Assembly: GCA_020279385.1 (NCBI GenBank)
Contig: GCA_020279385.1_4762.2
Strand: one strand, 5' to 3'
Source: a phage
DNA length: 64,000 bases
Notes under the pieces: generated by a model
What the model was told of the DNA's origin: nothing
Database searches by the model: none
What the model saw: the letters and a program-made list of their open reading frames with translations, nothing else
Translations under genes and position numbers: made by a program
In this document: positions 21,599 to 35,203 of the stretch, one piece after another
How the letters are laid out: each line of letters starts with the position of its first letter
Position numbering within the stretch: the first letter of the stretch is position 1

Positions 21599-21640
21599 TT
21601 CATCATTAAACTGTATTGATTTGAAGAGGTAATAAAAATT

Positions 21641-21964
21641 ATGACCGTTAAAACTCCTAAAGCACTTGGTGATTATGTAATTATCGAAGCTAAAGCAGAA
21701 AGCGCAGGGACCGAAGTAAAAAGCTCTATGGGGATCATTATTGAGCAAAAGCGCACTATGGGTGAGATTCCGCTGGTAGGTAAGATTATTGATATTGGTG
21801 AAACGGTAGATAAAGAATTGCTGGGTAAAACTGTTCTACTGCCACACGGAAAGATGAATAAAGTTCCTCATCCAGACGTTATTAACGGCGTTAAGAAGGA
21901 AGAAGAGATCGACCTGAAATGGACTGTAACACACAAACAGAATATTGTGGTAGTTTACGGTTAA
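21641..21964 (+). CDS. 31: co-chaperonin gp31 (GroES analogue)
   Basis: 107 aa; position between cd and DNA ligase and GroES-like pattern (GDYVIIEA, mobile-loop-like SSMGIIIEQ, VPHPDV). Confidence 0.65.
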   Translation: MTVKTPKALGDYVIIEAKAESAGTEVKSSMGIIIEQKRTMGEIPLVGKIIDIGETVDKELLGKTVLLPHGKMNKVPHPDVINGVKKEEEIDLKWTVTHKQNIVVVYG

Positions 21965-21975
21965 TGATTTTAAAC

Positions 21976-22002
21976 GGCGGGATTATTTCCCGCCTATATT
22001 TT
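21976..22002 (+). terminator. rho-independent terminator
   Basis: GGCGGGA-TTATT-TCCCGCC hairpin followed by TATATTTTGG. Confidence 0.7.
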
Positions 22003-22046
22003 GGCTATATGATTTTGTAAGTTATTGATTATTAAGGAATTTTATT

Positions 22047-22211
22047 ATGAAAACTATGAATGTAAACATCCACGAAATCCATACCGAAGTATTCACCGAA
22101 GAAGACCAGTTTGGTGTATGGGTAAATCCTCATTCGATTACTATCGATATTCCTAATGACGATTATGATCCGTTCTCTCTGATTAGCGAGATTAGTTTCA
22201 ATGACTTCTGA
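22047..22211 (+). CDS. hypothetical small protein (54 aa)
   Basis: ATG 22047; acidic; below track cutoff. Confidence 0.35.
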   Translation: MKTMNVNIHEIHTEVFTEEDQFGVWVNPHSITIDIPNDDYDPFSLISEISFNDF

Positions 22212-22680
22212 AATTGATATCTATGCGGGTGGACCTTATCCATCTGGTGAATTGAGTAATTTCAATAAAAGACCATTCCGTCTATTTGGTTGCGATATTA
22301 ACAGCACAGAAGGATTTTTACAGGGGCTAAGATTTAAGAACCCTCAGAGACAAAGAGAAATCTTTTTGATGCACGGTGGCAAAGCAAAAAGAACCGGAAG
22401 AACTGAAAAGATTGAGAATCACATGTTATATTTTCAGGGTCGCCCGATTCATCGAATGAGTGAGCATTATTACAGACTGGTACATCTGGCATTTGTTACG
22501 ATGGCACGGAATAACCCAGAATTTTGTAAAGCATTACTCGCTACCGGAAATAAGAAATTACGTCATAGCATAGGTGGAACTGATCCGTTAAAGACTATAT
22601 TGACTGAATCGGAATTTTGTAGTATCCTCAATGATATTCGTGAACGTTTAACAAAACGAGGTGAAAATGTCAATTCTTAA
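22201..22680 (+). CDS. NADAR / YbiA-like domain protein (putative ADP-ribosyl- or N-glycoside hydrolase)
   Basis: 159 aa; ELSNF...F......STEGFLQGLRF resembles the YbiA/NADAR FSNF...TSEHYFQA.KF core; LLATG and GGTDP segments also align with YbiA-like proteins. Confidence 0.5.
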   Translation: MTSEIDIYAGGPYPSGELSNFNKRPFRLFGCDINSTEGFLQGLRFKNPQRQREIFLMHGGKAKRTGRTEKIENHMLYFQGRPIHRMSEHYYRLVHLAFVTMARNNPEFCKALLATGNKKLRHSIGGTDPLKTILTESEFCSILNDIRERLTKRGENVNS

Positions 22681-24163
22681 TATCATTAACCAGCTTGCAG
22701 CGACCGACAAAACATCGCTGAAAGAAAAGATTCTGAAAGAATCCGCGAGCAATGAAACGCTGAAAGAATGCTTTTATCTGGCATATTGCAAACAGGTTAC
22801 GTTTGGCGTAAAGAAATACGATAAACCATCGCGCTATTCGTCTGTATTGTCTTTATCCGGTGCATTACAGGTCTTTAAAAATAAACTTGCCACGCGTCAA
22901 GTAACTGGTAATGCAGCATTACAGCTAGTTACCGATACTCTGACTTGCTTGTCAGAGGATGATGCTAAAGTTGCAATGATGGTCCTGAATCGTGATCTGG
23001 AATGCGGTTGTTCCGCCACCACTGCAAACAAGGTATGGAAGAAACTGATCCCCCAGCAGCCGTGTCACCTTGCATCGTCATATTCTGATAAGGCTATTGC
23101 TAATATCAAGTATCCGGCGTATGCACAACTTAAAAGCGATGGTGCTCGTGGTATGGCTGATATTGACGGGGAAACATTAGCAATCTATACCCGTTCAGGT
23201 AATACCTATCAGGGACTTGATGATTTGTTTGCGGTTTTAGAGCGTCTACGAGGCCGTGGAATTGTTCTAGATGGCGAATTGGTATATATGCCTACCCTTT
23301 CGCAAACACCAGCGCAGAACTTCGTTGAGAGCGTTTATGATGGTACTCTGTCATGGATATTTGAAGAAGAGGAAATGCCATTAACGCCAGTAGCGGAAGC
23401 AGTAAAAGAATCCGTTGTTGCAGACCGTCAGACCGGAAATGGTATCCTCAACAAATCACTTAAAGGAACTATTCCAAAAGAAGAAGCCCAATGTATTGTT
23501 TATACTGTCTGGGATGTTATCGACCGTGATGTGTATTACGGAAACGAGAAAGCAACGAAGCAATATAAAGATCGATTCGAAGAACTAAAACAGATTGTTG
23601 AAGAACTTAACGATCCTCGTGTTCAGATAATCGAAAATACTGTAGTTAACAATATCGATGAAGCTCGCGAAGTATATCATCGCTATGTAAACATGGGCTT
23701 AGAAGGTATTATCCTTAAAAATTTACATGGTGTATTTGAAGATCGTCGCAGTAAAGATCAGGTTAAATTTAAAGAAGTGATTGACTTCGACGCTGAAATT
23801 GTTGATGTATATCCGCATAGTAAAGATCCTAATAAGGTAGGCGGTTTTACTGTCCGTAGTGCGTGCGGACGAATGATGACTAACACCGGATCGGGATTAA
23901 CCGACACCACAACCGAAAAAGGTGATGATGGTATTGAACGTGTAATTCCGTTCGATCGTCGAAATGAACTCGACCGAGAAATGTTATGGGCTGACCGTCA
24001 TAACCTGATTGGAAAAGTCATTGAGATGACATGCAACGGGTACATTCGCAGCAAATCACGTAAAGAAGATGAACCGGAGTTCTCTTTATTTCTCCCGATC
24101 ATCAAACGTATTCGCTACGACAAGACCACTGCAAATACAGTAAAAGAGGTATTCGATGTGTGA
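22667..24163 (+). CDS. 30: ATP-dependent DNA ligase
   Basis: ~498 aa; KSDGAR adenylation lysine motif, LDGELVY, NGILNKSLKGTIPKEEAQC, GLEGIILKN, KFKEVID, GGF; colinear with T4 DNA ligase; ATG 22667 after RBS GAGGTG. Confidence 0.9.
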   Translation: MSILNIINQLAATDKTSLKEKILKESASNETLKECFYLAYCKQVTFGVKKYDKPSRYSSVLSLSGALQVFKNKLATRQVTGNAALQLVTDTLTCLSEDDAKVAMMVLNRDLECGCSATTANKVWKKLIPQQPCHLASSYSDKAIANIKYPAYAQLKSDGARGMADIDGETLAIYTRSGNTYQGLDDLFAVLERLRGRGIVLDGELVYMPTLSQTPAQNFVESVYDGTLSWIFEEEEMPLTPVAEAVKESVVADRQTGNGILNKSLKGTIPKEEAQCIVYTVWDVIDRDVYYGNEKATKQYKDRFEELKQIVEELNDPRVQIIENTVVNNIDEAREVYHRYVNMGLEGIILKNLHGVFEDRRSKDQVKFKEVIDFDAEIVDVYPHSKDPNKVGGFTVRSACGRMMTNTGSGLTDTTTEKGDDGIERVIPFDRRNELDREMLWADRHNLIGKVIEMTCNGYIRSKSRKEDEPEFSLFLPIIKRIRYDKTTANTVKEVFDV

Positions 24164-24632
24164 TAATGAAGGGGCGAAAGCCCCTAAACCTAAAAAATTG
24201 TCAAAGAAAGAGCAACGCCAGATCCTGAAAATGAAATACGGTGGACGTTGTGCCTATTGTGGCGAGGAACTAGGGGATCGCTGGCACGCAGACCACATCA
24301 AACCAGTATTGCGACGCTCAAAAGTAGTCTATGATGAAAATGGACGAATTGCCCGTAATGATGATGGATCGTGGAAGTATAAGGTTGTAGGAATGCATAA
24401 ACCGGAACATGATATACTTGATAACATGAATCCGTCGTGTGTGCAATGCAATCTTTATAAAAGCTGTATGGGCTTAGAATACTGGCGTAAGTGTATACGC
24501 GAGAACTTCCAGAAATACATTCAGCGCAATATGGGGTTGCGAGCGGCTAAACGCTTTGGCTTACTGTCAATCCACGACCAGCCAGTAGAATTTTATTTCG
24601 AAAAGTATGAGCGCGAGCATCAAGAAAAATAA
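24156..24632 (+). CDS. HNH endonuclease
   Basis: 158 aa; CAYCGEELGDRWHADHIKPV...NMNPSCVQCNLYK HNH zinc-finger nuclease motif; start overlaps ligase stop. Confidence 0.75.
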   Translation: MCDNEGAKAPKPKKLSKKEQRQILKMKYGGRCAYCGEELGDRWHADHIKPVLRRSKVVYDENGRIARNDDGSWKYKVVGMHKPEHDILDNMNPSCVQCNLYKSCMGLEYWRKCIRENFQKYIQRNMGLRAAKRFGLLSIHDQPVEFYFEKYEREHQEK

Positions 24633-33896: not shown

Positions 33897-34721
33897 ATGT
33901 TCAAACAATTACAGGATTTTCGTCTTTCAGAAGAATCACGCGAATCAATGATGGAACGTATGGACAATTATATTGAAACATATGACATTGAGGGGATTAA
34001 TGGTTACATGATCACTGAGATGATCAGCGATCAGATTAACTTTGATGATTATGTGAAGGTTATCCGCTTCCTTGAGCGTGAGACACAAGATTATGGATTT
34101 GTCAAGAAAATCATTAATGTGATGTATGAAGTACACTCCGAAGACTTTGGAGATAATGTATTCAAACATTACAAACATAACAACATAACCCCAGCAGAAT
34201 ATAATGCAATCTGTGATTATGTATCTGAACAATACGAATGGGTAAATGGTGCTCTCTTAGGGGAAGAAGACATGACCGATGAGATATCAGAGATTGTCGA
34301 TTTGATGGATTGCGTCATGGATAAAACCGAAAAGTTAAACGGTACTCTTTATCGCGGTCAACATCTTGACATTCAGACAATAGAGCGCATCATTGAAGAT
34401 AAGGAGTTTACCTTTAAAAACTTTGTATCGACCAGCATGACACCGATCATCTTTGGAGGATGGCTATCAAACAGCACTAGCCTTTATTGTGAGAATCGAT
34501 ATGAATCAATGACCGGAAAGATGCAACATTCTTGTAATGTATCATGGGTAATTGACGTAAAAGATCATAAAGGTTTTGTTGTTGGGTCAATTGCATGGAA
34601 CCCTTGCGAATGTGAAGTAATTTTACCGCGCGGGACTTGCGTCAAGGTAAACGACGTAGTAGAATCTTTCGGCGATGAGAATCGTAGACAATTTACAATT
34701 TTCGGTGAGGTGACTAAATGA
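33897..34721 (+). CDS. Alt/Mod-like ADP-ribosyltransferase (second ART paralog)
   Basis: 274 aa; R-S-ExE triad (TLYRGQHL, FVSTSMTPIIFGGW, CECEVILPRG) parallels Alt C-terminus. Confidence 0.65.
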   Translation: MFKQLQDFRLSEESRESMMERMDNYIETYDIEGINGYMITEMISDQINFDDYVKVIRFLERETQDYGFVKKIINVMYEVHSEDFGDNVFKHYKHNNITPAEYNAICDYVSEQYEWVNGALLGEEDMTDEISEIVDLMDCVMDKTEKLNGTLYRGQHLDIQTIERIIEDKEFTFKNFVSTSMTPIIFGGWLSNSTSLYCENRYESMTGKMQHSCNVSWVIDVKDHKGFVVGSIAWNPCECEVILPRGTCVKVNDVVESFGDENRRQFTIFGEVTK

Positions 34722-35203
34722 AAATGATTAAACTGATTGGTCTTGCGGCTGCATTCATGCTTACTGGTTGTGCCAACATGGAAGCTATGATGAATGCTAA
34801 ATCAGATCCGGTTTTCTTGCTTCGTGAATGTAAAGCAGCATATGCAAGTGATGATCAGATCGAATCGTGCTTTATTTCTAAAATGGAACGTCGAGACGTG
34901 GATCGCGTTAAAGTTGGTTTAGCACCACAAACGCAGATGTTCAAGGATGCAATCAAAGAAGCGCGGGAAGAGAAAGCACAAGAAGAAAAGAAGCGTCAAG
35001 AAGAATTGCGCAAGCAGAAAGAAGAGTCTATACAACTTGAGAAGATGAAAGCACGGGATCGCTGTATTATCATGTCTGACATGCAGATAGAGCAAGAAGC
35101 AAGAAAGGCAGCATTAAACGGTGATTATGACCGTTATGAAGAACTTAACAGCGCAGAATTTCAAACTAAGGCACTAAAATATTGCAATGATTTAGCAAAA
35201 TAA
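34718..35203 (+). CDS. predicted lipoprotein with charged coiled-coil region
   Basis: 161 aa; signal peptide + lipobox MKMIKLIGLAAAFMLTGC; KEAREEKAQEEKKRQEELRKQKEE helical segment. Confidence 0.6.
   Translation: MKMIKLIGLAAAFMLTGCANMEAMMNAKSDPVFLLRECKAAYASDDQIESCFISKMERRDVDRVKVGLAPQTQMFKDAIKEAREEKAQEEKKRQEELRKQKEESIQLEKMKARDRCIIMSDMQIEQEARKAALNGDYDRYEELNSAEFQTKALKYCNDLAK

Follow-up and report, generated by a model that had tools for sequence, protein, structure and literature searches.

The open reading frame between gene 31 and the DNA ligase gene in the 64,000-nucleotide stretch of phage DNA analysed here (hereafter the window) almost certainly encodes a NADAR-fold ortholog of phage T4 gp30.3, also known as AdfN. 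Our analysis established what the gene is and which family it belongs to, together with its fold, conserved residues and synteny. The frame runs from an ATG start to a TAA stop (Table 1), and its product matched the Pfam family PF08010 (Phage_30_3, "Bacteriophage protein GP30.3") with 132.5 bits and E = 1.2e-38, against a cutoff of 36 bits, over protein residues 13-148 and profile positions 2-138 of 138. The same protein matched PHROG 652 (E = 2.5e-45), and tblastn recovered homologs in 1510 phage records. Because of these matches to PF08010, PHROG 652 and the phage records, a chance open reading frame was ruled out and the frame was accepted as a genuine gene. The protein was 100% identical to RB49 gp30.3 (AJ550428), and the 2.6-kb stretch around it (21600..24200) showed 98-99% identity to RB49-like Krischvirus phages of E. 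coli. The RB49-type gp30.3 is of an already known kind and is annotated as gp30.3 in RB49; most phage records with homologs label the gene "hypothetical protein". A profile search with the gp30.3 family returned 1665 clusters at E <= 1e-3 and 457 at E <= 1e-30, and 66 single-domain representatives made up the family alignment (A2) to which residue counts out of 66 refer.

Table 1. Positions of the gp30.3/AdfN gene, its key residues, its neighbours and the ADP-ribosyltransferase genes in the window
Feature	Position	Strand	Details
Gene 31, GroES-like co-chaperonin	21641..21964	+	RB49 annotation; weak Cpn10 match
Terminator-like hairpin	21976..21994	+	7 bp with 6 GC pairs, then a T-rich tract; directly after gene 31
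54-aa ORF (31.-1 in RB49)	22047..22211	+	Its end and the start of adfN overlap by 11 nt
Gene 30.3/adfN ortholog	22201..22680	+	159 aa; single-domain "phage NADAR", core NADAR fold only
Codon GAA (E37), conserved catalytic Glu	22309..22311	+	Aligns to T4 E36 and YbiA E48
Codon AGA (R44), position of the catalytic phosphate-coordinating Lys	22330..22332	+	Aligns to T4 K43 and YbiA K55
Codon CAT (H122), clade-defining His	22564..22566	+	Position of the YbiA-type Glu and the DarG1-type Asp
C-terminal alpha-helix, residues 136-157, intact	22606..22671	+	DSSP on the model; aligns to the T4 C-terminus
Gene 30, ATP-dependent DNA ligase	22667..24163	+	PF01068, E = 4.2e-22; start overlaps the adfN end by 14 nt
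Alt, full-length, 683 aa	31767..33818	+	PF03496 (ADPrib_exo_Tox) above threshold; RB49 annotation
Alt-like ADP-ribosyltransferase (ART), 274 aa	33897..34721	+	PF03496 above threshold; paralog of the C-terminal ART domain of Alt

A preliminary description of this locus, made from the letters of the window, had compared the product to NADAR/YbiA-like proteins on the strength of three short strings, and all three are present in the translation (LSNFNKRPFRLF at residues 18-29, STEGFLQGLRF at residues 35-45 and LLATG at residues 112-116). The resemblance held, and of the profile-HMM comparison proposed along with it the direct form fell short and the profile-profile form was positive. The Pfam NADAR model (PF08719) scored 15.5 bits (E = 0.021), below its gathering threshold of 35.1 bits; NCBIfam gave only a faint match, to a NADAR anti-phage family; and profile HMM searches of PDB sequences matched YbiA weakly (E = 0.12 and 0.018) and through the N-terminal motif only. 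Since sequence-only HMM searches were insufficient to link gp30.3 with the NADARs, hhalign and a fold search were needed. With hhalign, the 66-sequence profile aligned to E. coli YbiA (sequence from NC_000913) over 128 columns with 92% probability and E = 6.6e-7, and the catalytic motifs were in register. The AlphaFold2 model of the 159-aa protein, built on the first alignment, was confident (mean pLDDT 94.3, pTM 0.89) and has the three-dimensional fold of a NADAR. Foldseek searches with this model retrieved 2b3w (E = 3e-6) and 8bau (probability 1.0), and against predicted viral structures they returned gp30.3-type proteins first, followed by dozens of proteins named NADAR. The combination of no profile match and an unrelated fold, which would have spoken against the preliminary description, did not occur; profile-profile and fold searches both reach NADARs. 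The sub-threshold PF08719 score reflects how far the gp30.3 clade has diverged; Pfam has a separate model for this clade. PF08719 was matched at E <= 1e-3 by 8 of the 70 longer relatives. DltA (7vhv) was considered as a relative on the basis of a phmmer match (E = 3.8e-4) and was dropped when the similarity was lost in the profile and fold searches.

These 70 longer relatives are fused to heterogeneous partners, including ASCH, NT5C, SLOG, LRR and D-Ala-D-Ala ligase domains, and some of the fusions are probably gene-calling artefacts. No ART fusion partner was found among the 70 proteins surveyed. Five metagenomic relatives (P0014, P0022, P0031, P0058 and P0087) carry two to three tandem gp30.3-type domains or are fused to ASCH, NT5C, SLOG (YpsA) or LRR partners; P0014, with 480 aa, has three gp30.3-matched stretches.

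Within the NADARs, gp30.3 is a recognised "phage NADAR" family, which carries a His where YbiA-type proteins have Glu and DarT1-associated proteins have Asp (Schuller et al. 2023, PMC11543638; Toxins 2024, PMC11125620; Toxins 2026, PMC12945103). The alignment column of H122 holds His in all 66 representatives. Counted without gaps from the common LLAT motif, H122 corresponds to YbiA E125, whereas hhalign sets it one residue off, opposite YbiA H126. The catalytic Glu is equally invariant (66/66), and the equivalents of E37 include PnNADAR E43 and E. coli C7 DarG1 E88 besides the T4 and YbiA residues listed in Table 1. The window protein differs from E. coli YbiA (2b3w) in having H122 in place of the Glu of the last strand that marks the YbiA subfamily, and in a 14-residue beta-hairpin insert at about residues 75-88 (strands E75-78 and E81-84 in the model), which is common to the gp30.3 clade and absent from YbiA; YbiA is found in housekeeping and SOS-operon contexts. 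A small-molecule substrate, either a soluble ADP-ribose derivative acting as an immune signal or a riboflavin-pathway intermediate, is very unlikely for the window protein. E. coli YbiA does act as an N-glycosidase of riboflavin intermediates (PMC11543638), but the Glu that defines YbiA is replaced by His here, T4 gp30.3 acts on DNA-linked ADP-ribose both in vitro and in infection, and the RB49 annotation places no NAD-salvage genes beside 30.3.

The DarG1 antitoxins (BC4488-type, as in E. coli C7 and Geobacter lovleyi, 8bat) differ from the window protein in three respects: they have Asp instead of His at the third catalytic position, they bear N-terminal extensions of the fold where the window protein consists of the core domain, and their genes adjoin darT1, whereas the window gene has no DarT neighbour. 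AdfN-Bas32 and AdfN-Bas60 of T5-like and Vequintavirinae phages are, like the window protein, phage-encoded stand-alone NADARs; they counter DarTG1 and are specific for guanine. They belong to other, independently co-opted NADAR branches, whereas the window protein falls in the gp30.3 clade, and their neutralisation of DarT1 does not depend on infection by a phage.

The closest functionally characterised protein is T4 AdfN; the two share 38% identity across residues 3-150 (E = 3e-30), almost the whole length. Both match PF08010, both have a single domain and are about equally long (159 aa in the window and 152 aa in T4), and both genes occupy the slot between gene 31 and the ligase gene 30 on the same strand. 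Both retain the catalytic Glu (E36 in T4, E37 here), the C-terminal helix and the clade His; the window protein runs about 9 residues further at its C-terminus, and its alignment to the T4 C-terminus, where the T4 helix segment reads TILTEAEF...LRDSL, contains neither a frameshift nor an early stop. The two differ at R44, which stands where T4 AdfN has the experimentally tested catalytic K43. T4 is assigned to the Tevenvirinae, a lineage to which the Krischvirus of the window does not belong.

For T4, the function of this family has been worked out in some detail. Resistance of T-even phages to DarTG1 was mapped to gene 30.3, which was renamed adfN for anti-DarT factor NADAR (Johannesman et al., Nat Commun 2025, PMC11825919). 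In the same study, purified T4 AdfN stripped ADP-ribose from DarT1-modified DNA, a T4 adfN deletion mutant was sensitive to DarTG1, and the thymine-modifying DarTG2 was not countered (PMC11825919). Rescue was reduced by each of E36A, K43A and a truncation of the C-terminal helix; the truncation mimics a natural frameshift in RB69, whose allele is DarTG1-sensitive (PMC11825919). An independent transposon-sequencing preprint found T4 30.3/adfN to be conditionally essential on DarTG1 hosts. T4 gp30.3 is described as a guanine-specific glycohydrolase of guanine-N2-ADP-ribose on DNA, and the reversal of guanine ADP-ribosylation by NADARs, which the preliminary description had mentioned, has been demonstrated on DNA for T4 gp30.3 itself. 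Its further suggestion that a phage copy could serve as a counter-defence against DarTG-like systems was right in substance and had already been published for T4 (PMC11825919). Our literature searches found no test of a Krischvirus or of RB49 against DarTG.

By analogy with T4 AdfN, the RB49-type allele would do the same, and we consider it likely that RB49-type gp30.3 functions as a guanine de-ADP-ribosylase directed against DarTG1-type systems. On infection of a DarTG1-type host, the DarT1 toxin would ADP-ribosylate the N2 of guanine in the phage DNA and block its replication; RB49-type gp30.3 would then bind the ADP-ribose and hydrolyse the N-glycosidic bond between ribose and guanine, so that unmodified DNA would be restored and phage replication could proceed. 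Going by the homologous residues, the distal ribose would lie between E37 and H122, with R44 in contact with the phosphates. The phage protein would in effect be an "orphan antitoxin". Several points temper the analogy. Identity to the assayed T4 enzyme is 38%. T4 AdfN reaches full function only when a T-even phage infects and is no substitute for DarG1 in uninfected cells (PMC11825919), and a T-even factor that it is reported to need may differ or be absent in an RB49-type phage. The RB49-type locus lacks T4 genes 30.1 and 30.2, as well as the small ORFs 30.4-30.9 near T4 30.3. The sub-threshold PF08719 score also counts against the analogy.

A second possibility is that the protein acts as a general eraser of guanine-linked ADP-ribose with another target, such as ADP-ribosylated RNA (guanosines of tRNA or mRNA) or DNA modified by pierisin- or ScARP-like enzymes or by YarT. 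Other guanine-directed ART toxins are indeed paired with NADAR/YbiA antitoxins, as in YarT-YbiA (PMC11125620), and the rare R44 could reflect a shifted substrate preference. We nevertheless regard this possibility as unlikely: the sole phenotype of T4 gene 30.3 found so far is specific to DarTG1, and the window shows no linkage of 30.3 specifically to RNA repair.

The substitution at R44 deserves separate consideration. The position lies seven residues after the catalytic Glu and corresponds to PnNADAR K50 and DarG1 K95 in addition to the T4 and YbiA lysines; it is Lys in 63 of the 66 aligned representatives. In a wider set of 156 representatives, Lys occupies the column in 152 and Arg in 3, and the three carriers of Arg are the cluster of the window protein itself, a relative with 69% identity (P0002) and one unrelated fusion protein. 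Across the A2 columns that are at least 80% conserved, only three residues of the window protein are atypical, T36 (Met in the family), F78 (Trp) and R44 (Lys). The same change has been made in DarG1, whose K95R variant retained hydrolysis of guanine-linked ADP-ribose in vitro and lost the ability to rescue cells from DarT1 (Schuller et al., PMC11543638). This makes R44 a real caveat for transferring the in vivo function of T4 AdfN to the RB49-type protein.

On this evidence, the RB49-type gene could be an attenuated allele, in which the fold is intact and R44 makes for a poor anti-DarTG1 factor in vivo, so that Krischviruses may be sensitive to DarTG1 or tuned to another DarT1 variant. The DarG1 K95R behaviour and the scarcity of Arg in the column both fit such an allele, and natural anti-DarT alleles that are inactive or retuned have been described, namely the RB69 AdfN truncation and AdfA variants (PMC11825919). 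The conservation of the gene points the other way. All 60 records that match the Krischvirus gp31-ligase region carry it at 95% identity or more, and this conservation, together with the R44 shared with P0002, speaks for purifying selection that maintains a functional protein. Arg also keeps the positive charge of the Lys, which again argues for a working enzyme, and the DarG1 result may not transfer because the phage clade differs from DarG1 in its third catalytic residue (His, not Asp). An attenuated allele thus appears quite improbable. For the Krischvirus lineage with R44 as a whole, the broader proposition that it has either been retuned to another substrate or DarT1 variant or is a weak anti-DarTG1 factor is unlikely. 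We retain the anti-DarTG1 reading as the preferred one.

The preliminary description had also pointed to two ADP-ribosyltransferases in the window and proposed that the phage may carry both writer and eraser activities. The two genes are there, each with PF03496 above threshold (Table 1); the functional pairing found no support, with the genes 9-12 kb apart from 30.3. The two Alt-like ART genes sit in tandem, followed by a 161-aa ORF (34718..35203) that has no Pfam match. Co-occurrence of NADAR and ART genes in T4-like phages has been noted before in the literature. If gp30.3 were an eraser for the phage's own Alt-type enzymes, it would reverse or limit the modification of host or phage targets; the presence of the two ARTs downstream would fit such a role. 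Alt modifies arginine side chains. Both window enzymes are of the ADPrib_exo_Tox type, and the name given to Alt in the RB49 annotation is RNA polymerase ADP-ribosyltransferase. NADAR activity has been demonstrated only on base-linked ADP-ribose (PMC11543638, PMC11125620, PMC12945103), the ART genes are separated from 30.3 by many small ORFs, and the T4 phenotype is accounted for by the host DarT1. The pairing with the Alt-like ARTs was rejected on the grounds of substrate and of gene position, and an eraser of this kind is extremely unlikely.

The placement of the gene between gene 31 and the DNA ligase gene, as first described, was correct: gene 31, the 54-aa ORF, 30.3 and the ligase gene follow one another in that order (Table 1). 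The interval contains one 54-aa ORF and 30.3 and is far more compact than its T4 counterpart, where nine ORFs lie between gene 31 and 30.3 or the ligase, including gp30.1 and the 278-aa gp30.2. The terminator-like hairpin after gene 31 would separate that gene from a unit made up of 31.-1, 30.3 and 30. From the hairpin to position 22047 the + strand showed no sigma-70-like promoter, and a scan for promoters and terminators around 30.3 returned nothing above the shuffled expectation apart from this hairpin. The overlap between 31.-1 and adfN suggests translational coupling. The 54-aa ORF itself had no Pfam match, and it was discarded as a candidate partner conserved with T4, since the ORF overlapping the T4 30.3 start did not resemble it. 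For the ligase, the mechanical list of open reading frames begins at GTG 22661 and the RB49 annotation at ATG 22667; the latter start is favoured because of that annotation and because a Shine-Dalgarno-like GGTGA motif lies just upstream.

Beyond the ligase, an ORF on the + strand (24156..24632; PF01844, E = 1e-5) overlaps the ligase 3' end by 8 nt; its RB49 counterpart is annotated as an HNH endonuclease, and it is probably a homing-endonuclease-type insertion beside gene 30. Further downstream, between approximately 24700 and 31700 in the window and 23000 and 32200 in RB49, the coordinate offset between the two phages shifts by about 2 kb (from +1600 at 30.3 to -480 at alt). The small hypothetical ORFs between the ligase gene and alt consequently differ in content from those of RB49, which suggests that this block is a variable region.

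The main use of these results is in annotation, through transfer of the name adfN-like or phage NADAR to the gene, and their significance beyond correct annotation is small. R44 offers an inexpensive handle on the uneven in vivo efficacy of phage NADARs with in vitro activity, and if the lineage that carries it is indeed retuned or weakened, it would constitute a natural test of what sets in vivo specificity in phage NADARs. From the analogy with T4 AdfN we predict resistance to DarTG1-type defences in RB49-type phages, a group in use for phage collections and therapy screens.
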